From: an uncultured Candidatus Saccharibacteria bacterium
GTDB lineage: Bacteria; Patescibacteriota; Minisyncoccia; Phycocordibacterales; UBA918
NCBI GenBank assembly: GCA_964638425.1
Contig: CAZWYM010000004.1
Location: forward strand, 33,301-96,562
Length of the DNA stretch: 63,262 nt
Direction: 5' to 3'
The stretch's first letter is position 1. Every line of letters starts with the position of its first letter. The position numbers and the translations under genes are program-made. Below the pieces are notes generated by a model, which ran no database searches, had not been told where the DNA came from, and was given only the letters and a program-made list of their open reading frames with translations. Below, in pieces: positions 205 to 44,314 of this stretch.

Positions 205-1911
205 TATGAGTATCAGTATGATGAACCTGCAGAGTACGTAGAGTATTCATACGGGACACCATCATACTCATACGGTTCACATGATTATTCTCATGACTAT
301 GTGTACGCGTACAATGATAACTATTCATACCCAACATACACACACACAAACCCTACACCAAAGCCACGACCAACCTGTACGCTCACGGTAGATCCAGGCA
401 GTATTGATGAAGGTGAGCATGCAACACTTGCGTGGACGACAAGCAATGCTACATCTATCTCGATTAACAACGAAATCGGTTCAGTTTCAGAAAGTGGAAC
501 AAAGTCAGTCTCACCAGCAACATCTAAGACCTATACACTCGTTGCTACAGGGAAGGGTGGTTCGGTAACGTGTTCAGATACAATTATTGTTAAGGAAGAT
601 ACAAACAATAATGAAGATGTCTCATGTGACGCATTCACCGTAAATGATTCAAACGTCGAAGAGGGGGATGAAGTGACACTCACTTGGCGAACGACGGGAG
701 CTGACGATGTCGACATCAACAACGGAGTTGGAGATGTTGCTGATGACGGAAGTGAGAAGGTGACTGTCGACCGAGACACTACCTTTACCCTCACTGCTCG
801 AAATGGTTCTGATACTGATACCTGTAAAATTACGGTAAATGTTGATGAGGATACAAACAATAACGATGATGTCTCATGTGATGCATTCACTGTGAGCGAT
901 TCACGCGTTGAAGAAGGAGATGAAGTGACGCTCAAGTGGCGAACCACCGGAGCTGACGATGTCGACATCAACAACGGAGTTGGTGATGTCGATGAGGACG
1001 GAAGTGAGGAGGTAACAGTAAAACGAGACACTACCTTTACGCTTACCGCGCGAAATGGTTCTGATACTGACACATGCCGAGTAACGGTAAATGTTGAGGA
1101 GGATAACTCGAGTAGTGATACAGCACCACGATGTTCACTCCATATCTCTGATACAAAAATAACTGCAAACCAAAAGGTTACGCTCTCATGGGATAATACA
1201 CGTACTGATAGAATCATTCTTAAGGATAGTACTGGTCATGAAATTCTCGATTCACGAGATGATCGTGACGTAGACGAAGATAAAGATTCTGTTGTCGTGC
1301 ATCCAACACGTTCAACTGACTACACGCTTACTGTGTACAACGGAAGCAAGAAAAAGACGTGTACCGTAGGGGCAGATATTGAAGGTGTTGTGGTAACGAG
1401 TGTTCGTTCACAGGATGGAATTTCACTTACAAAGGTTCCGTACACTGGATTTGAAGCAGGCCCACTTCTTACATTCATTTTCTACGGAGCAATTGTCCTC
1501 TGGGGTATGGTGATTGCATATGCGCTTGTCATCCGAAAGAAGGCAGCTGTTGTTGGAGCAGAAATGATTGCTCACACACCTCATATCTCCGCGAGTGTTT
1601 CTGATGCTGTCGTAGACGATATTACGTTCCCACTTACAAGTGGAGCACCTGAACACCTTCCTACCGACGAAGTTGAGGATGTTGATATGAACAGTACTGA
1701 AGACACCGTACGTGCACTTGAAACGCATGCACACTCAAAGTTGGCACTTATTTCAAGCGATGCACTCCGACTCATCGAAAGCCAGAAGGGGACGCTCGAA
1801 GAGCAGATGGCGACGCTTGATCATGTGATTGACCTTGCGAAGGCACGTTTCCCAAAGGAAAGTGATTGGATTGTTATTAACAAAGAAAGAGTAATGTCAC
1901 TCCTCGGATAA
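1..1911 (+). CDS. Large surface/envelope protein, 5'-partial. It has Gly/Tyr/Cys-rich 34-aa repeats, a Tyr-rich spacer, four Ig-like ~80-aa modules, then VPYTG + TM helix + RKK and a ~125-aa C-terminal tail.
   Basis: Frame 1 is open from nt 1 (GSGYGTSGGDVIDNGCCD...), so the track start at 301 is an internal GTG. Modules repeat the pattern C..TV....V.EG..VTL.W.T.....I......V...G...V....T.TLTA.N. VPYTGFEAGPLLTFIFYGAIVLWGMVIAYALVIRKK is encoded at nt 1435-1542. The TAA stop is followed by a hairpin terminator. Confidence 0.8.
   Translation, partial: GSGYGTSGGDVIDNGCCDTATVIDWENYSYADYYGSGYGTSGGDVIDNGCCDNATVIDWDNYSYEQDEYEYQYDEPAEYVEYSYGTPSYSYGSHDYSHDYVYAYNDNYSYPTYTHTNPTPKPRPTCTLTVDPGSIDEGEHATLAWTTSNATSISINNEIGSVSESGTKSVSPATSKTYTLVATGKGGSVTCSDTIIVKEDTNNNEDVSCDAFTVNDSNVEEGDEVTLTWRTTGADDVDINNGVGDVADDGSEKVTVDRDTTFTLTARNGSDTDTCKITVNVDEDTNNNDDVSCDAFTVSDSRVEEGDEVTLKWRTTGADDVDINNGVGDVDEDGSEEVTVKRDTTFTLTARNGSDTDTCRVTVNVEEDNSSSDTAPRCSLHISDTKITANQKVTLSWDNTRTDRIILKDSTGHEILDSRDDRDVDEDKDSVVVHPTRSTDYTLTVYNGSKKKTCTVGADIEGVVVTSVRSQDGISLTKVPYTGFEAGPLLTFIFYGAIVLWGMVIAYALVIRKKAAVVGAEMIAHTPHISASVSDAVVDDITFPLTSGAPEHLPTDEVEDVDMNSTEDTVRALETHAHSKLALISSDALRLIESQKGTLEEQMATLDHVIDLAKARFPKESDWIVINKERVMSLLG
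598..1101 (+). repeat. Two tandem copies of a 252-nt (84-aa) coding repeat (Ig-like module)
   Basis: DTNNNEDVSCDAFTVNDSNVEEGDEVTLTWRTTGADDVDINNGVGDV... versus DTNNNDDVSCDAFTVSDSRVEEGDEVTLKWRTTGADDVDINNGVGDV... Confidence 0.9.
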
Positions 1912-1968: not shown

Positions 1969-3726
1969 CTACATTTTCTTCGTTTCGATTTCTGCAAGGA
2001 GATGGTTCCCAACTGATTCAAGTGTGATTTGTTGGGAATTACCATTTCTTGATTCAAGAGTCACCATTTTTTCTGCCACTTCTTTATCTCCTACAACGAT
2101 GAAGTAGGGGAGTCGTTCCTGTTTTGCTGTTCGGATTTTTTTACCCATTGATTCATTGCTGGTATCTAAGGTCGATCTAATGCCAACTGCGGATAGTTCG
2201 GTATGTACTTGTGTTGCGTACGCGCTATGTGCATCACTCACAGGAATAACGCGAATTTGCTCAGGAGCAAGCCAAAGGGGGAAGTTCCCACCGAGATGCT
2301 CTATAAGTACCGCAGAGAAGCGCTCAATAGATCCCATAATTGCGCAATGGATCATAACGATACGCTCTTTCTGACCAGCTTCATTGATACATGAAAGATC
2401 AAATCGTTCAGGGAGATTCATGTCTAGTTGTATCGTTGCGACCTGATGCTCACGTCCAAGAGAATCCTTTGCCATAAAGTCGAGTTTTGGTCCGTACATA
2501 GCAGCTTCTCCCGGCGCTTCAAAGTAATCTGCGTGTCGTGCTTTCGCAATGTCTCGAAGGGCATTTTCTGCGTTGTCCCATATTTCCTTTGTGCCGAGAT
2601 AGTTTTCGAATTTCGAAGGCTCATGAAAGGAAAGGCGAACGCGGAGGTTGAATCCAAAAGTACTGTAAAACGTATCAATCATGTCCCAAATTCTAAAGAA
2701 TTCTTCCTTTACTTGGCTATGTCTACAAAATACATGAGAATCATCTTGTGTAATAGAAAGCACGCGAGTTAGTCCACCAAGTTCTCCTGATTGTTCATCA
2801 CGATATACCATTGTCGTTTCTGCGTACCGTTGAGGCATCTCTCTGTAGCTATGTGGCTTACGATCAAAGATTTGTGTGTGGTGCGGACAGTTCATTGGCT
2901 TGAGTGCATACTCCTTACCTTCACGTGTTGTAATACGAAATAATTCATCCGCAAATTTTTCCCAATGCCCTGAGGTGACATAGAGATCTTTCTTTGTGAT
3001 GTGTGGGATGGTGACACGAGTGTACCCATGTTTTTCTCTAAGTGCCCAAATGTACGTATCGAGTGTATTACGAAGGATGGCACCTTTTGGAGTCCAAAGA
3101 GGAAGTCCTGATCCTACAAGGTCTGAGAATGTGAAGAGGTCGAGTTCCTTACCAAGTTTTCGGTGGTCACGCTTCTTCGCTTCCTCAATTTGTGTGAGGT
3201 GTGCAGTGAGTGCTTCGCCATCTTCAAATGCAAGCCCGTAAATACGGGTAAGCATTGGATTGTTTGAATCTCCACGCCAGTATGCTCCTGCGAGTGAGGT
3301 GAGCTTGAATGAGTCAGCTGGAATATCAGTTGCTGGGGATTCACTGTGCCCACCTCGACAAAGGTCGGTGAACTCTGTGTGTCCTTCACCCACAGTATAA
3401 AGCGTTATCGTTTCACCAGCCTTTTCGAGGTCATTGATAAGCTCAGTCTTGTACACATTATTTTTGAAAATTTCTCGAGCCTCGTTTGGGGTTACGACAC
3501 GATGGGTAAACGCTTTCCATGATGAAAGCATCTTTTTCATGTTTTTTTCGAGTTGTTTTAGGTCTGCATCACTTGGTGTTGCGCCCCCGCTAAAATCAAA
3601 GTCATAGTAAAATCCTGTTTCAATAGCTGGACCAATAGTAGGAAGGGCATGAGGAAAATCCTTGCGGACGGAACACGCGAGAAGATGTGCGAGAGTGTGA
3701 CGTTTTTGTTCGAGGGATGTTTCCAT
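1969..3726 (-). CDS. thrS: Threonyl-tRNA synthetase (starts at the editing/SAD domain; no TGS domain)
   Basis: 585-aa ORF. N-terminal HTLAHLL...GPAIETGFYYDFDF editing-domain motifs, a class II core (..EYALKPMNCPHH.., ..RVLSITQDDSH..) and an anticodon-binding C-terminus. ATG at 3726. Confidence 0.93.
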   Translation of the reverse strand: METSLEQKRHTLAHLLACSVRKDFPHALPTIGPAIETGFYYDFDFSGGATPSDADLKQLEKNMKKMLSSWKAFTHRVVTPNEAREIFKNNVYKTELINDLEKAGETITLYTVGEGHTEFTDLCRGGHSESPATDIPADSFKLTSLAGAYWRGDSNNPMLTRIYGLAFEDGEALTAHLTQIEEAKKRDHRKLGKELDLFTFSDLVGSGLPLWTPKGAILRNTLDTYIWALREKHGYTRVTIPHITKKDLYVTSGHWEKFADELFRITTREGKEYALKPMNCPHHTQIFDRKPHSYREMPQRYAETTMVYRDEQSGELGGLTRVLSITQDDSHVFCRHSQVKEEFFRIWDMIDTFYSTFGFNLRVRLSFHEPSKFENYLGTKEIWDNAENALRDIAKARHADYFEAPGEAAMYGPKLDFMAKDSLGREHQVATIQLDMNLPERFDLSCINEAGQKERIVMIHCAIMGSIERFSAVLIEHLGGNFPLWLAPEQIRVIPVSDAHSAYATQVHTELSAVGIRSTLDTSNESMGKKIRTAKQERLPYFIVVGDKEVAEKMVTLESRNGNSQQITLESVGNHLLAEIETKKM

Positions 3727-3844: not shown

Positions 3845-6800
3845 CTACTCAGGAGTAGCTGAAGGGGCTACAGGTTGGAGGGACTTCATACGGTCAATGA
3901 CAATCGTGGGTTCTTCATTTCGCATCGAAATTTTCCCTTGAATCGCAATACATGAGCCAGGGGTAATGAGCGCAATATTTGCTCGATACAATTCAGGGAA
4001 TGCAACGAGTTCGATACTTTCAAGTCCGTCGCCAAGCATCACAAATGCCATACGGTCACCCTTCTTTGTCAGAATTTCCTGAACACTCTCAATCATCCCT
4101 GCGGTTACTGCAGGGATACCATTTCGTGTTTCCTTCTTGAGAACGCCAATACGTGGACGTTTTGCCAGTTCACTTTGGAATGCATCAAGTGGATGTCCTG
4201 ATACATACACACCGAGAAGCTCCTTTTCCCAAATGAGCTTCTCATTTTTTGTTGCTGGTGTCCCTTCCTCAAGTTCAAGTGTATGAAGGAAAGATTCATC
4301 TCCCGAACCAAAGAGTGAATCTTGTGCAGATGCTTTACCGTGGGATTGCTCTTTGTGGTAGGCGAGGAGCATCTCAGAGTTGTGGAGTATTCTTCCGCGC
4401 TCCCCGAAGCGGTCAAACGACCCCGACATGGTGAGTGCTTCGAGCGATTTTTTATTGAAGTTCTTTCCTGTAATGCGAGAGAGGAAATCTTGGAGGGAGG
4501 TATACGCACCATTTTCTTTACGTTCTTCAATGATTGATTCAGCAATTCCTTCTCCAAAATTTTTAATCGTCGTCAGACCAAAACGAATTTTTGCGGGTAC
4601 ATCCTCGCGAGCAGGCACTACGGAGAACGGGCCAAAACTTTCATTGATGTCAGGAGGGAGTACTTCAATTCCCATGCGAACACACTCATGAATAATTTCT
4701 GAAATTTTCTCAGTGTCACCAGCGTCGGCAGTGAGTACAGCGGACATATATTCAACAGGGTAGTTTGCCTTCATGTACGCTGTTTGGTACGCAACTCTTC
4801 CGTAGCTTGCCGCGTGCGCTTTGTTAAATCCGTACGCCGCAAACGGCTCAATGAGCTTCCAAATTTTCTCTGCAAGGTTCTGTGAAAGTTTTCCGTGGTG
4901 CATGAACCCGCTGATGAGCTTTTCTCGCTCAGCTTCCATCACCGCAGGAATCTTTTTACCCATCGCCTTTCGGAGCATATCTGCCTCGAGCCATGAGTAC
5001 CCACCCAGCTCACGAGAAATCATCATAACGTCGTCTTGGTAGGTGATAACTCCATATGAACGATCAAGAATTTTTTCAAGTCGAGGATCGAGGTAGCTAA
5101 TGAGATTGGGGTTATGCTTACGTTCAATATACTGTGGAATAGATTCCATCGGCCCTGGTCGATAGAGTGCAACCATCGCATTGATGTCGTGGATGGTTGT
5201 TGGTTGGAGTTGCTTAAGGAAGGCGGTCATTCCCGTTCCGTTAAGCTGGAAGAGTCCCATTGTTTCTCCTCGTGCGAGCATGTCGTAGGTTTTTTTGTCG
5301 TCGACGGGAACGTTCTCAATGTCCACCTCAATCCCATGAATTACCTGCACACGACGTACAGCCTCAGAGAGAATTGAGAGATTTTTAATTCCGAGGAAGT
5401 CGAACTTGAGGAGACCGACACCGTCTTCTCCTACTGAGTGCATTTCATACTGCGTAATAAGTTTTCCTGATTTCGGGTCGGGTTGTACGGGTACGAGGTC
5501 GGTGAGTGGTACGGGAGAAATCACCACACCTGCTGCGTGTACTCCCACGTGACGCACACGTCCTTCAATTTGTTTTGCTAAGTCGATGACCTCCTTCGTA
5601 TCAGCATCCTTTTTATAGAGCTCCGCTAGGTCAGGTTCAATCTCCATCGCTTTTAGGATGGTCATTGGAAATCCTTGGCTTCCCATAGGAATGAGCTTTG
5701 CGATACGGTCTCCTGTGGAGTAGGGGTGACCAAGTGCACGCGCAACATCACGCACCGCAGCGCGCGCCATCATTGTTCCAAAGGTACCAATCTGCGCGAC
5801 GTTGTCTGTCCCGTACACGGTACGCGCATATTCAATGATTTCATCTCGACGATTGTCAGCATAGTCCATGTCGATATCAGGAGCAGAAGGTCGCTCAGGA
5901 TTAAGGAAACGTTCGAAGGGGAGTTTGTATTCGAGTGGATTTACATTCGTAATTCCAAGAACGTACGTGGTGAGTGACCCCGCAACAGAACCTCGAATGG
6001 TGGTTAATATTTTTCGCTCACGCGCTTCGCGAAGAAGGTCGCCTACTACGAGAAAGTATTTAGCGTACCCTTTCATTTTAATAACACTGATTTCGTAATC
6101 GAGTCGTTCCTTTACAATAGGGTCATCAAGCGAGAGACCTCGCCATGCGACTCCTTCGTATGCAGTTGCTTGCAGTTCTTCGTCTGGTTCGCGACCACTC
6201 TTTATTTTGTAGTCGGGGAAGTACCATGTTGCACCAAGGTTCATTTCAACGGTACATGCTGAAGCAATCCGAACGGTATTCTGAAGTGCCTCAAGCTCAG
6301 GTGGTGTAACAAACAATTCTTTTGCTTTCTCTTGAGAAATAAAAGAAAAATTTGGTGCAAGTTCTCCCTTGCTGTCGTTCGTCTCAACGACACCACCGTT
6401 CTGTATTTTAATCATCGTCTCTCGTGCAAGATAATCAGTCTGCTCAAGATAATAGGCATCATGTGCCGCAACGAGTTTTGTCTTCGTTTTTTGGCTGAGG
6501 TCAATGATGTTTTTCTGGACTTCTTCGTGACCCTCAATTTCAGGGTGATGCGTAATCTCAAGGTAGCAGTCATCACCAAAAAGATTTTTATACCAGTCGA
6601 GCGTTGATTCAGCTTTTTCTTGATTGAGGTCCTTAAGTGCAAGGATAGGTTCTCCACTGAAAGACGGAATGATACAGACGAGGTCCTTATGGAATTCAGA
6701 GAGAAGGTCATGGTCGATACGCGGTTTGTAGTAAAAGCCGTTCACGAAAGACTCGGTAACAATCTTAATGAGGTTCTTATACCCATCATTATTTTTTGCG

Positions 6801-7096: not shown

Positions 7097-7172
7097 AGTT
7101 CTAGTATTGTATAGTAATATAGAAGAAAGAAAAACTAACGAAAATGGAGACCGATAATACTAAAAATCAAAG

Positions 7173-7859
7173 ATGCTGAGGAAAGTTCGAGAAAAAACAA
7201 GAACTTCAAGCGAGACGTACATAGCGTACGGTGAGCGAAGAGTTCGCAGGTTTGACAAAGAAATTTCCCAGAAGGTTCGATTTTTAATTGGAGTTGATGA
7301 GGCTGGTAGAGGCCCCCTAGCCGGCCCAGTCGCTGTAGGCGTTGCCATTGTGCCGGTCTATTTTGATTGGACGCTTATTCTGGGGGTGGGGGATTCGAAG
7401 AAAGTGACGCCGAAAAATCGCGAAGCGATTTTTCGGCGAGCAAAACAACTCAAAAAAGACGGACTGCTTGATTTTGCCGTTGTCCTTGTTTCTGCGAAGG
7501 TTATAGATAAAATTGGTATTACGAAAGCTGTAGCTCTGGGTATCACGCGAGCATTCGCAAAACTAAATCCCAATCCTGACGCTACTGATGTACGACTCGA
7601 TGGACTCCTCAAGGCTCCTCCACAGTTCACAAATCAACAAACCATTATTAAAGGAGATCAGAAGGAGAAGGTGATTGGCCTCGCGTCTATCATGGCGAAG
7701 GTAACACGAGATGATCATATGGTCCGTCTTGCACGTCTTCATCCCCATTACCACTTTGAAGTTCATAAAGGATATGGCACAAAGGTTCATCGAGGAGCCA
7801 TCCTAAAGTACGGGATTTCTGGGGCGCACCGTCAGTCTTTTTGTAAAAAGTTCATATAA
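7173..7859 (+). CDS. rnhB: Ribonuclease HII
   Basis: IGVDEAGRGPLAGPVAVG and DSKK motifs. A ~35-aa basic N-terminal extension is present if ATG 7173 is the start. Confidence 0.85.
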   Translation: MLRKVREKTRTSSETYIAYGERRVRRFDKEISQKVRFLIGVDEAGRGPLAGPVAVGVAIVPVYFDWTLILGVGDSKKVTPKNREAIFRRAKQLKKDGLLDFAVVLVSAKVIDKIGITKAVALGITRAFAKLNPNPDATDVRLDGLLKAPPQFTNQQTIIKGDQKEKVIGLASIMAKVTRDDHMVRLARLHPHYHFEVHKGYGTKVHRGAILKYGISGAHRQSFCKKFI

Positions 7860-8939: not shown

Positions 8940-9839
8940 ATGGCAAATCGACACCTTTCAAGATCAATCGTTCTTCAATCACTCTTTGAGTGGGATTTAA
9001 ATAATATCGAAAAGAATGAAGTGCACGAGGCACTCGTTCGTAATATTGAAGAATTTGCACCAAACAACGGTGATGCGCCATTTATGAACAAACTCCTCGA
9101 TGGAGTTCTCCAAAAACAAACTGAACTCGACCTCGTTATTGAGAAAGCCGCACCAGAGTGGCCTATCGATAGAATTGCACCTGTAGATAGAAATATTCTC
9201 CGCCTCGGATTATTCGAGCTCCTTTTTGCCGATAGAAAGGAAGTACCCGCAAAGGTTGCTATTAATGAAGCGATTGAATTAGCGAAGCAATTTGGCGGTG
9301 AAAACTCAAGTCGTTTTGTGAACGGTGTACTTGGAGCAGTGTATAAGGAAATCGGTGAACCAGGCAAAGAAGAAATTTCTCGTTCTAAAAAAAAGAAAGA
9401 TATCCCGTTTGAGCAAATGGAGATTGAGCGACTATCGGGTGCAGTAGTGTATGCAATGCATGAAGGAGTTATGTACCTTGCACTCGTGCATGACATTTTT
9501 GGTCACTGGACGCTATCAAAGGGAAGAATCGAAAGTAGCGAATCTGTGGAGGTGGGAGCGGTTCGTTCAATTAAGGATGAGATTGGCCTGACCGTAGTGA
9601 TTGAAGCTGAACTCGGTAAGAATGAGTACGTTGCGTCACACCCAGAAAAGGGGAAGGTTCGTAAGCAAGTTTCGTACTACCTCGCAAAGGCAGAGTATGA
9701 GAATCTCACACTTGAACAGAAGGGAGGACTCGACGCGGCACAGTGGTTTAAGGTGGCTGATATTTTGGAGCTCAATTTCTATGAGGATATACTACCTATC
9801 GTCACGAAAGCCGTCACCATGCTCGTTTCGAGGAATTGA
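8940..9839 (+). CDS. nusB: NusB antitermination-factor domain fused to a C-terminal Nudix-like domain
   Basis: N-terminal 140 aa are NusB-like (..DRNILRLGLFELLF...VAINEAIELAKQFGGENSSRFVNGVLG..). C-terminal 150 aa carry a near-Nudix box, G-RIESS-E-SVEVGAV-R-SIKDEIGL. Confidence 0.85.
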   Translation: MANRHLSRSIVLQSLFEWDLNNIEKNEVHEALVRNIEEFAPNNGDAPFMNKLLDGVLQKQTELDLVIEKAAPEWPIDRIAPVDRNILRLGLFELLFADRKEVPAKVAINEAIELAKQFGGENSSRFVNGVLGAVYKEIGEPGKEEISRSKKKKDIPFEQMEIERLSGAVVYAMHEGVMYLALVHDIFGHWTLSKGRIESSESVEVGAVRSIKDEIGLTVVIEAELGKNEYVASHPEKGKVRKQVSYYLAKAEYENLTLEQKGGLDAAQWFKVADILELNFYEDILPIVTKAVTMLVSRN

Positions 9840-9948
9840 GTTAACTACTTCGTTAGACTACGGTGAATTAAATTTCATCGTATAAAACATACGCCTCAAT
9901 TTAATTCCCTTGTCTGTCTTGTATTTATTCTCAATTCCTCCAAACGAG
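9822..9948 (+). repeat. Imperfect-palindrome element, copy C (127 nt), with the conserved apical module
   Basis: Basal helix ctcgtttcgaggaattgag / ctcaattcctccaaacgag (18/19 bp). Box tacttcgtt at 9846-54. Helix gaattaaatt/aatttaattc. Apical tcatcgtataaaacatacgcctc at 9875-97. Confidence 0.8.
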
Positions 9949-10038
9949 TGAATGTTTGCACAAGCATAGAGCGCGTTTAATTTTGCCTGCTGATGTGCGA
10001 ATGACGGTTTAATTTTTTCATGCTAGTCTAAGCGCAAT

Positions 10039-19874: not shown

Positions 19875-20228
19875 ATGGAATTAGATCAGCAGTTTCTTGA
19901 ACAGCTTGTAAAGGCACTCGTTGACCACCCGGAAAGTGTAAAGATTACCCGCACTGTTGATGAGATGGGAGTACTCCTTCTTTTGGATGTACATGCCGAG
20001 GACATGGGAAAGATTATTGGACGATCAGGTAATACCGCTAAGGCAATCCGAACACTCCTCCGTGTTGTAGGAATGAAGAATGAAGCACGCGTTAACTTGA
20101 AGATTAATGAACCAGAAGGAGGAACACGAAGTTCAGCATCTTCTGATATGAATGTTGATTCAAGCGTTGATGAGGTGCAGAATACTCCGAAGTCTTTGGA
20201 CGAAGCAATCGAAGGTTTGAGAATCTAA
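19875..20228 (+). CDS. khpA: KH-domain RNA-binding protein (UPF0109/KhpA-like) with a C-terminal extension
   Basis: ..LVKALVDHPESVKI........LLLLDVHAEDMGKIIGRSGNTAKAIRTLL.. has the GxxG KH motif. It sits between rpsP and trmD as in many bacteria. Confidence 0.8.
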   Translation: MELDQQFLEQLVKALVDHPESVKITRTVDEMGVLLLLDVHAEDMGKIIGRSGNTAKAIRTLLRVVGMKNEARVNLKINEPEGGTRSSASSDMNVDSSVDEVQNTPKSLDEAIEGLRI

Positions 20229-20339
20229 ATTGGCAAACTGCTTTGTTGCAGTTCGAAAAAAGACAGTCGCCGTATGCAAATACGTCTTCTGTCTTTTTTC
20301 TTCTGCGCCTCGCATTTTATCCAATTTAGATTCTCAAAC
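20214..20339 (+). repeat. Imperfect-palindrome element, copy D (126 nt)
   Basis: Basal helix gtttgagaatctaaattgg / ccaatttagattctcaaac (19 bp perfect). Box tgctttgtt at 20239-47. Helix aaaaaagacag/ctgtctttttt. Apical tcgccgtatgcaaatacgtctt at 20267-88. Confidence 0.75.
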
Positions 20340-20355: not shown

Positions 20356-20386
20356 AAAACCCGCACGCTATGCGTGCGGGTTTTGT
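20356..20386 (+). terminator. Intrinsic terminator
   Basis: aaaa-cccgcacgc-tat-gcgtgcggg-tttt. Confidence 0.8.
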
Positions 20387-20407
20387 GTTAGGATACGAAG
20401 TAATTCT

Positions 20408-21570: not shown

Positions 21571-21606
21571 GTTACATCATAACGTACGGCCGTACGTTAT
21601 GATGTA
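21571..21606 (+). terminator. Perfect 36-nt palindrome after trmD
   Basis: ttacatcataacgtacgg/ccgtacgttatgatgtaa followed by aaaaaa. Confidence 0.55.
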
Positions 21607-21764
21607 AAAAAGTAGCAGAGGCGATATAGGGAAAAAACTAAAGAATCTGAGAAATTGAGGCGAATTCGCGAAAAAGCGAAGTTCCTGACGAAGACGTACA
21701 AGTGTACGGCGAAGGAAGAAACTGATGCTTTGACAAAGAAGTCGTCCAAGTTCACAGGTTCTTA

Positions 21765-21793
21765 TTGACGTTTCATGGGTTTACAGGTATACT
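21765..21793 (+). promoter_or_regulatory. Sigma-70-like promoter for rpoBC (TTGACG-17-TATACT)
   Basis: -35 at 21765-70 and -10 at 21788-93, giving a ~220-nt leader before the rpoB ATG at 22018. Confidence 0.5.
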
Positions 21794-32727: not shown

Positions 32728-32845
32728 GAGTTGTATTTTCACCCCATCTACTTTGTTGTCTTCGTCGTGACGACGGTCATCGTACGCTTGTACGCCTCCC
32801 GTCCTCACTCCTCGACGCCTCGTATCTGAGGCAAAAATCCAACTC
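32728..32845 (+). repeat. Imperfect-palindrome element, copy A (118 nt)
   Basis: Basal helix gagttgtatttt / aaaatccaactc (11/12). Box tactttgtt at 32749-57. Helix gtga-c-gacgg / ccgtc-c-tcac. Apical tcatcgtacgcttgtacgcctc at 32777-98. Confidence 0.75.
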
Positions 32846-32864: not shown

Positions 32865-32899
32865 AAAACCTCTGAAAAGCTAAGCTTTTCAGGGGTTTT
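32865..32899 (+). terminator. Intrinsic terminator after rpoD and element A
   Basis: aaaacctctgaaaagc-taa-gcttttcaggggtttt. Confidence 0.85.
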
Positions 32900-32924
32900 A
32901 TTATGATGTGTGTTGGGGATTAGT

Positions 32925-44186: not shown

Positions 44187-44314
44187 AAAATTACATTCTA
44201 AAATCCTCAATTACTTTGTTACCCGTCGTCGAGAGGCCGTTCATCGTATACCACATACGCCTCACGGTCTCTCTCCTTGGCTCCTCGTACTTGAGGATTT
44301 TTGAGATGTAATTT
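44187..44314 (+). repeat. Imperfect-palindrome element, copy B (128 nt)
   Basis: Basal helix aaaattacat-tct-aaaatcctcaa / ttgaggattttt-gag-atgtaattt (~21 bp with an internal loop). Box tactttgtt at 44212-20. Helix gagaggccgt/acggtctctc (one G.U). Apical tcatcgtataccacatacgcctc at 44241-63. Confidence 0.8.

Follow-up and report, generated by a model that had tools for sequence, protein, structure and literature searches.

Widespread palindromic repeats of Paceibacteria with covarying helices and outer arms inverted from gene ends

A family of dispersed palindromic repeats, real, widespread and previously uncatalogued, is represented by six copies in the DNA studied here, a stretch of 63,262 nucleotides from an uncultured Candidatus Saccharibacteria bacterium (contig CAZWYM010000004.1, positions 33,301 to 96,562; the window). 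One of them, copy C, spans the stop codon of a nusB gene and lies upstream of rnc, the gene for RNase III. In the explanation that we favour, and to which we give about even chances, copy C is a member of a repeat family that spans the class Paceibacteria, the arms of which arise by fold-back copying and the folded single-stranded DNA (ssDNA) of which is recognised by a protein. The element combines an unusual trio of properties, namely unpaired boxes that are conserved across the class within stems that are free in sequence, an outer stem taken from the end of a gene, and a hairpin on the strand that is usually not transcribed.

The ultra-small bacteria of the candidate phyla radiation (CPR, Patescibacteria) are known for tiny, streamlined genomes, and almost no non-coding features have been characterised experimentally in these organisms. 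A repeat that makes up about 1% of such a streamlined genome, retains its architecture across a class and follows core genes such as tuf, secY, atpE, rpoD and mreB is therefore either functional or an efficient spreader.

Architecture and covariation

The element is about 90-130 bases long and consists of a core of 86-88 nt, with four nested helices and 22 pairs, and of outer arms of about 15-23 bp. From base to apex, the consensus reads as a variable basal helix, a 3-bp helix H1 of the form T-N-C/G-N-A, a box TTTGTY opposite KYCKC, the 4-bp helix H2, the 10-bp helix H3, and the loops TCAY and YCTC on either side of a mini-hairpin, CGTAY-N4-5-RTACG. An earlier note on this DNA had pointed to four such elements (A to D), and all four are found where it placed them, with their boxes, each as a long hairpin that folds far better than its dinucleotide shuffles (z scores on the plus strand of -9.1, -10.3, -5.0 and -8.1). 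The apex pattern CGTAY-N3-6-RTACGYCT, expected 0.01 times in the window, occurs six times and exposed two further, degenerate copies, E and F (z scores -3.0 and -2.1). The statement that all copies share the plus orientation thus holds for the four intact ones and fails for E and F, which lie on the minus strand. Of two covariance models, R1 was built from the six window copies and R2 from 107 foreign copies; when both scanned the window with filters off, each returned the same six copies (58-91 bits) and nothing else above 15 bits, which corresponds to about one copy per 10 kb.

The cores of the six window copies are not near-identical sequences at unrelated loci, unlike those of the Kaiserbacteria genome MFLT01 described below. 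In these six, 91.7% of the cells are paired as compared to 63.7% in shuffles, double changes are seen at 16 of the 22 pairs, none of 500 shuffles reaches any of five covariation measures, and controls with slid helices pair in 32-48%. The 107 copies from other genomes confirm this, with 88.9% of cells paired (59.6% in shuffles), double changes at 21 of the 22 pairs, and a covariation score of 0.685 as against 0.176 in shuffles and about 0.1 in slid controls. The family with conserved unpaired boxes and with helices that pair despite sequence change is thereby upheld, and two helices that had escaped the earlier note, the 3-bp T-N-C/G-N-A helix and a 4-bp one, also covary. The covariation that it described is borne out in the core by the 107 foreign copies; in the basal helix, the signal comes largely from a right arm that is an inverted copy of the gene end. 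Nor are the helices wholly unrelated in sequence, for A and B have 14 of 20 identical bases over H3 and the TCAT loop.

Distribution

A strict pattern of 5′ box plus apex, run on the GTDB species genomes, matched at least 119 stretches. Among the matches listed, nearly all are metagenome-assembled genomes (MAGs) of Patescibacteria/Paceibacteria, comprising Kaiser-, Nomura-, Campbell-, Zambryskii-, Lloyd- and Azambacteria as well as MAGs labelled ‘Saccharibacteria’. The scan with covariance models that the earlier note had proposed did yield further copies, about 198 in total (107 + 55 within pattern-matched loci), with covariation well above shuffles. The window itself comes from a Paceibacteria (CPR) genome: its DNA is 70-78% identical to that of MAGs of Kaiserbacteria and other Paceibacteria, and one portion matches a Logan contig from SRR12762297 without any difference.

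The few matches labelled outside Patescibacteria are suspect. Contigs without a CPR label that carry the element are L095 (a ‘Patiriisocius sp.’ MAG) and L026/L106 (‘Azotimanducaceae’). L095 is 72-75% identical to and syntenic with the window at 40.8-45.5 kb, and it is therefore most likely a mis-binned Paceibacteria contig. The element and its covariance model are a ready marker for Paceibacteria contigs, one that has already exposed this mis-binning. A ‘Bacillota’ MAG of high GC content (L060/L062/L096) may be a real exception to the restriction to CPR.

Searches of the literature on CPR for palindromic repeats, MITE and REP elements and RNA motifs yielded no description of the element. Rfam 15 at gathering thresholds gave no match in the whole window, permissive Rfam scans of copy D and L060 gave terminator-like or miRNA-like chance matches or nothing, and no tRNA or tmRNA identity was found. 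A pattern search of 2.9 million viral contigs was negative, as was blastn against plasmids and phages, which speaks against a phage or plasmid origin.

Outer arms

In copies behind nusB, the left arm codes for the conserved end of the protein, ...TMLV(S/A/G)(K/R)(K/R)stop. The same C-terminus is present in element-free orthologues, and the left arm is therefore native sequence. The right arm, for its part, is the reverse complement of the nusB codons of its own genome, matching the respective gene end at 18/18 positions in L160, 19/19 in L179, 18/19 in the window, 16/18 in L168 and 15/19 in L176. In L138, the inverted copy extends about 40 nt into the coding sequence (CDS), and in many further copies, among them L099, L003, L102 and copy D of the window, the palindrome likewise extends without a break beyond the stop into the CDS. 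The right flank of L134 and L169 mirrors the native left flank (AGAATCC and AAAATCC, respectively), and empty relatives lack such a sequence at this place. Since the right arm is inverted from each genome’s own gene end, the covarying outer helix reflects the copying of one arm from the other. From these sequence comparisons we infer that the arms may be made by fold-back copying, i.e., by a quasipalindrome template switch. There is a caution in this for covariation-based RNA discovery, as a non-coding stem whose sequence changes in step with the final codons of a neighbouring protein gene can mimic RNA covariation.

Strand asymmetry

The core helices contain 2032 Watson-Crick pairs and 35 G-U pairs, and core mismatches are mostly pyrimidine-pyrimidine on the ‘+’ strand of the element. 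The outer arms are not part of the covariance models, so that counts of arm mismatches are free of model bias. Among these, C-type mismatches on ‘+’ (C·A 71, T·C 47, A·C 32, C·T 24, C·C 19; total 193) far exceed G-type ones (G·T 14, T·G 6, G·A 10, A·G 5, G·G 9; total 44), with ratios of 116:18 in sense contexts and 22:2 in antisense contexts. The unconstrained arm is rich in C and A on ‘+’ and in G and T, which are capable of wobble, on the other strand. In agreement with this, RNAfold predicts the opposite strand to be more stable in 177 of 190 copies (medians of -49.0 and -38.3 kcal/mol) and in every context, and for each window copy the fold of the minus strand is more stable than that of the plus strand. 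Mutation bias was rejected as the cause, since it would have to be about 5-fold between strands and run against the genome’s own positive GC skew.

The mismatch spectrum and the folding energies together place the selected hairpin on the strand opposite ‘+’, whatever the direction of the gene, and about three quarters of the copies place ‘+’ in the mRNA. The view of the earlier note that plus-strand RNA is the selected structure is contradicted by this. Core pairing is 0.864 in antisense-context copies and 0.858 in sense-context copies, and no enrichment of GNRA or UNCG was seen in apical loops on either strand. Copies A and D, after which hairpins flanked by A-runs and T-runs follow within 18-20 nt, offer no space for a promoter of antisense transcription. 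A selected hairpin on the strand that is usually not transcribed is a testable puzzle; taken together, these observations favour folded ssDNA over RNA, although they do not settle the matter.

Gain, loss and gene context

A comparison of the filled nusB site of L134 with the empty one of L146 shows a clean insertion without direct repeat. MFLT01 harbors five copies at unrelated sites, with identities of 89% (82-93%) in the cores, 65% in the arms and 32% in the flanks; this likeness at unrelated sites is direct evidence of recent amplification. The shared unit extends from TAG/TAA... to ...CTA/TTA, about 127 nt, and in this young subfamily both arms change together and faster than the core. As in MITEs, terminal inverted repeats (arms of 15-23 bp, median identity 91%) bound a short non-coding unit of which one genome, MFLT01, has near-identical copies at unrelated loci. 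As with REP elements, the copies are extragenic and enriched at 3′ ends and between convergent genes. The element thus behaves as a dispersed, occasionally mobile REP/MITE-like repeat that is gained and lost among relatives.

Some copies are arranged in tandem. In L146 (12776-13117), three elements follow khpA with a period of 127 nt, and each unit opens with a direct copy of the last khpA codons, AAGATATAA; units 1 and 2 are identical, whereas unit 3, the orthologue of copy D, differs from them in its core. In the MAG labelled Bacillota (GC 0.66), near-identical tandem copies with a period of 131 nt run up to the contig ends (L060 1-320, L062 1-220) behind a gene that, from its sequence, putatively encodes a DksA/TraR-type zinc-finger protein. 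Either the assembly has produced this arrangement, or a genuine array exists outside CPR.

Elsewhere, the element trails tuf, secY, atpE, mreB, gap, rpoD, khpA, rpsG, nusG, def and others, and the first six of these carry copies in distant genomes. In a comparison that bears on vertical inheritance of such same-gene copies, they are no more alike in their variable columns (0.34 after one identical pair was dropped) than random pairs (0.33). Classified by flanking genes, 64 contexts are co-directional, 48 of them sense and 16 antisense, while 19 are convergent and 3 divergent. The stops beside copies are TAA in 82, TAG in 27 and TGA in 3 cases (480, 215 and 115 for all open reading frames of the same loci), with a peak of stop-to-core distances at 17-19 nt. 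The copies lie within transcription units, between a TAA/TAG stop and a terminator or the next gene, and a separate, canonical terminator-like hairpin follows at least 23 of 111 sense copies elsewhere as well as A and D in the window. The element is not itself an intrinsic terminator, given that none is predicted at C and that A and D have their own such hairpins.

Orientation follows the gene strand in 81 of 111 copies and local GC skew in 76 of 113; where the two are in conflict, the split is 14 to 8. GC skew and gene strand correlate, and the bias may stem from replication or from transcription. In the window, the four intact copies, including B amid minus-strand genes, run along the leading (plus, G-rich) strand, and the degraded E and F are inverted. 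Close pairs without an intervening gene are tail-to-tail in 5 cases, tandem in 9 and head-to-head in none.

Function and alternative explanations

Our best guess as to function is a folded ssDNA element with conserved protein-recognition boxes. Intrastrand fold-back copying would make and extend the arms and keep them complementary, with the coding arm as the constrained template, and the conserved boxes would form the recognition surface for a conserved trans-acting protein, possibly a mobilising enzyme or a DNA-handling enzyme of the host, which would see the element as a folded single DNA strand. The hairpin in the 3′ regions of mRNAs, including the nusB-rnc spacer, would then be a side effect that may secondarily affect RNase III processing. 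It is a more daring and rather doubtful proposition that this constitutes a new type of ssDNA element, in which a strand-specific core bound by a Paceibacteria protein is coupled to fold-back propagation that writes inverted gene-end codons into the stem. If so, the target duplication would be inverted instead of direct, and the same mechanism would keep stem and coding sequence co-evolving.

Several points weigh against our favoured explanation. Same-gene copies in distant genomes and the class-wide boxes are more easily reconciled with a role in the host than with pure selfishness, and the 3:1 sense bias together with the 5 tail-to-tail versus 0 head-to-head pairs links orientation with genes or with replication. 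The sampled loci showed no gene for a transposase, RAYT or recombinase, and the copies there bracket housekeeping genes (atpE, mraZ, def, rpsG, msrA/B, nusG). TA is found at both ends of four of the five young copies, but this dinucleotide is its own complement and in many cases the flank still belongs to the palindrome; likewise, the base after the right-hand TA is a purine in 26 of 35 cases, which suits the idea of a relic stop codon and is equally predicted by continuation of the palindrome. Fold-back copying is deduced solely from its presumed products, box conservation is partly ascertained because loci were found by a pattern demanding those boxes, and a wobble-capable free arm would also be expected of a structured RNA on the opposite strand.

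The best-placed competitor, though an unlikely one, is a cis-acting hairpin of plus-strand mRNA that protects from 3′ exonucleases or is processed by RNase III, with a protein on its pyrimidine-rich loops. REP and Correia/nemis hairpins act in this way, protecting mRNA from 3′ exonucleases or serving RNase III processing. Copies inside transcription units, right after stops and before terminators, and co-oriented about 3:1 with the upstream gene would be in keeping with such a role, as would their recurrence behind highly expressed genes and between genes of the str operon, the still very stable plus-strand hairpins (median -38 kcal/mol) and the RNase III encoded next door. However, the arms, with 20 G-U-type and 103 A-C-type mismatches, favour the other strand even where the mRNA carries that other strand, a quarter of the copies are antisense yet equally intact, G-U pairs are very few, there is no tetraloop signature, and presence at orthologous sites is patchy.

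A second alternative keeps the folded ssDNA and dispenses with mobility: the element would be a host site with a housekeeping role, such as a hairpin for priming or restart or a site of topoisomerase action behind heavily transcribed genes, and would resemble the plasmid origins ssoA, in which conserved unpaired boxes likewise go with variable stems. Consistent with this are a strand-specific hairpin selection independent of transcription direction, boxes conserved throughout the class, an enrichment of copies after highly expressed genes and the density of about one copy per 10 kb in the window. We nevertheless consider it quite improbable, in view of the patchiness among close relatives, the recent amplification in one genome, the lack of a match to any known enzyme motif, and the GC skew, which in most cases does not assign the stable strand to the lagging-strand template.

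Close behind ranks a structured RNA from the opposite strand. It could be an antisense transcript, or a hairpin that acts as an insulator by terminating or processing antisense and read-through transcripts ahead of the 3′ end of the gene. The loops on that strand are purine-rich (GAGR/RUGA and GMGRM/RACAAA), as is typical of internal loops in RNA motifs, the mismatches are compatible with wobble, the free arm is rich in G and U, the fold is about 9 kcal/mol more stable, and 19 copies lie between convergent genes, where read-through would produce such an RNA. Yet both flanking genes have the opposite direction in 48 of the 86 contexts that were classified, there is no promoter-like site near C, and GNRA/UNCG loops on that strand number 0 of 46. 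Since A and D are followed within 18-20 nt by terminator-like hairpins, these two copies leave no room for an antisense promoter. Overall, we find this explanation hard to sustain.

Comparison with known elements

With REP/BIME and REPIN elements, which are associated with RAYT (Y1) transposases and occur in Proteobacteria, the element shares its nature as a many-copy extragenic palindrome at 3′ ends, between convergent genes and within transcripts, as well as a strand-specific logic of single-strand hairpins and long-term persistence with occasional amplification. However, a REP is a GC-rich hairpin of 20-40 nt, whereas the element has a core of 86 nt with four helices that differ completely between copies of one genome, and arms that copy the neighbouring gene end. 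It has no invariant GTAG foot (the corresponding position on the opposite strand is A, T or G in equal thirds), and no RAYT gene was seen among the genes bracketed in the sampled loci.

Correia/nemis elements of Neisseria, RUP of Streptococcus and other MITEs resemble it in size (about 100-150 bp), in having terminal inverted repeats, in being inserted beside genes, and in being co-transcribed as hairpins, which in the case of nemis are RNase III substrates; like them, the element may insert at TA. Yet MITE copies are alike throughout, while in the present family class-wide conservation is confined to the unpaired boxes, the stems covary, the arms are partly flank-derived, and both a target-site duplication and a parent insertion sequence are putative only; the loci retrieved showed no autonomous insertion sequence with ends like those of the element. 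ERIC/IRU, the 127-bp imperfect palindromes of enterobacteria, have a similar length and form, a transcribed intergenic location and both orientations in common with the element, but they are conserved in sequence and not in structure alone, and blastn against 5,426 E. coli genomes found no similarity.

Like integron attC sites, the element is a palindrome of conserved structure and variable sequence that abuts the stop of the upstream reading frame, and its recognition would likewise take place on one folded DNA strand, chosen by means of unpaired bases. In contrast to attC, it has no R''/R' (RYYYAAC...GTTRRRY) pair, its apex is conserved where that of attC is variable, and housekeeping neighbours take the place of a cassette array or integrase, neither of which was seen. 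An identity with attC was rejected because the sole GTT-containing box (TTTGTY) lies on the 5′ side without an AAC partner and the 3′ box is KYCKC, and a cassette array because the neighbours are nusB, rnc, khpA, rpoD, hisS, trmD and rnhB and copies occur in both orientations. The single-strand origins of the ssoA type, from rolling-circle plasmids, are also imperfect palindromes of about 130 nt with conserved unpaired boxes (RSB, CS-6) in variable stems, and they work only as one folded DNA strand. The element differs from them in being chromosomal and present in dozens of copies per genome, with no match to plasmid sequence and no evidence of priming.

TIGR-Tas arrays, which are found in CPR, consist of tandem stem-loops with box C/D motifs and two 8-12-nt spacers beside a Tas (Nop-domain) gene (PMC12045711). 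The present copies are dispersed and have neither an RUGAUGA/CUGA pair nor such spacers, and there is no Tas among the window genes examined, so that this identity was rejected.

The nusB-rnc locus

The nusB gene of the window (8940-9839) also encodes a Nudix hydrolase domain (Pfam NusB 3e-36, NUDIX 1e-11), a widespread fusion with relatives in more than 570 metagenomic stretches. The surroundings of copy C are as the earlier note described them, in that the left arm consists of the last nusB-Nudix codons plus the TGA and rnc starts 90 nt beyond the element. Neither a promoter nor a terminator is predicted between nusB and rnc, and copy C is therefore probably co-transcribed with both genes. 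We compared 80 metagenomic loci with NusB-Nudix orthologues of 64-86% identity, in 73 of which the gene end is readable. The idea of the earlier note that the hairpin is a dedicated RNase III autoregulatory leader of rnc, for which a long stem within a probable co-transcript just upstream of rnc could speak, is highly improbable in our view and largely refuted as a conserved function, since only 16 of the 73 orthologous spacers are filled, the closest relatives (83-86% protein identity) are empty, the offset past the stop varies with lineage (3, 15-24 or 16-18 nt), the five other window copies have no link to rnc, and many unrelated genes are trailed by the same element. Cleavage of the copy C hairpin by RNase III is possible, and would be incidental to the repeat family.

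A conserved motif TGCTA(N3)T is found at 10019-10027, 12 nt before the rnc ATG, and recurs right after the nusB stop in element-free relatives (L129, L139, L144, L146 and others). The motif might serve rnc as an extended -10 element; a simple promoter scan made no call there. In three metagenomic relatives, a second, unrelated conserved insert with ACCGTGAGAAAGTYTGGGAGACTTTCGCAAGAGGTT is nested in the nusB-trailing element or replaces it, and in L169 it splits the apical mini-hairpin. Rfam has no match to this insert.

The other copies in the window

The features are compiled in Table 1. Orthologues of copy D that trail khpA were found in L135, L145, L146, L158, L161, L173 and L174, and the arms of D extend 12 nt inside the khpA CDS. 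The rpoD gene of L055 also carries a copy, as it does in the window with copy A, and copy B is antisense to hisS. Weak Rfam matches at the hairpin that follows D are all to terminator-type leaders.

Table 1. Positions of the elements, their parts and neighbouring features (window coordinates unless a locus is named).
Feature	Position	Strand	Remarks
Copy C, whole palindrome	9822..9948	+	spans nusB-Nudix stop (TGA 9837-9839); ends 90 nt before rnc; 80-82 bits
C, left basal arm CTCGTTTCGAGGAATTGAG	9822..9840	+	native coding sequence, L V S R N stop
C, right basal arm CTCAATTCCTCCAAACGAG	9930..9948	+	reverse complement of left arm, 18/19 positions
C, conserved core	9843..9930	+	
C, H1	9846-9848/9921-9923		
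C, 5′ box TTCGTT	9849-9854		
C, H2	9855-9858/9912-9915		
C, H3	9865-9874/9898-9907		
C, loop TCAT	9875-9878		
C, mini-hairpin	9879-9893		
C, loop CCTC	9894-9897		
C, 3′ box	9916-9920		
Copy D	20214..20339 (core 20236-20321)	+	spans khpA stop (TAA 20226-20228); 88-91 bits
Copy A	32728..32845 (core 32746-32831)	+	begins 3 nt past rpoD stop
Copy B	44187..44314 (core 44209-44296)	+	14 nt past stop of minus-strand hisS
Copy E, degenerate	7161..7286 (core 7179-7265)	-	between dnaE and rnhB
Copy F, degenerate	21630..21775 (core 21658-21743)	-	between trmD and next plus-strand gene
Terminator-like hairpin, T-run (A-run on other side)	20358..20390	+	neighbour outside element, 18 nt past D
Terminator-like hairpin with T-run	32866..32900	+	neighbour outside element, 20 nt past A
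Insert with ACCGTGAGAAAGTYTGGGAGACTTTCGCAAGAGGTT	L168 about 945-1010		
Insert with ACCGTGAGAAAGTYTGGGAGACTTTCGCAAGAGGTT	L158 about 5790-5975		
Insert with ACCGTGAGAAAGTYTGGGAGACTTTCGCAAGAGGTT	L169 about 2380-2465		

The arms of the degenerate copy E (7161-7183/7264-7286) are 74% complementary. This copy lies in frame within the first 38 codons of the rnhB reading frame (ATG 7173); the RNase HII motif GVDEAGRG begins at 7290, and there is no other in-frame start codon between that ATG and the motif. Either copy E is translated as an N-terminal extension of RnhB, comparable to the Rickettsia palindromic elements, which are translated inserts, or the start of rnhB is misplaced.

Some 50 nt from copy F, and 6 nt past the stop of trmD, there is a perfect palindrome of 36 bp, TTACATCATAACGTACGGCCGTACGTTATGATGTAA (21572-21607). 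At its centre, the sequence CGTAC-GGCC-GTACG is like the apical mini-hairpin of the element; its flanks, however, are fully paired.

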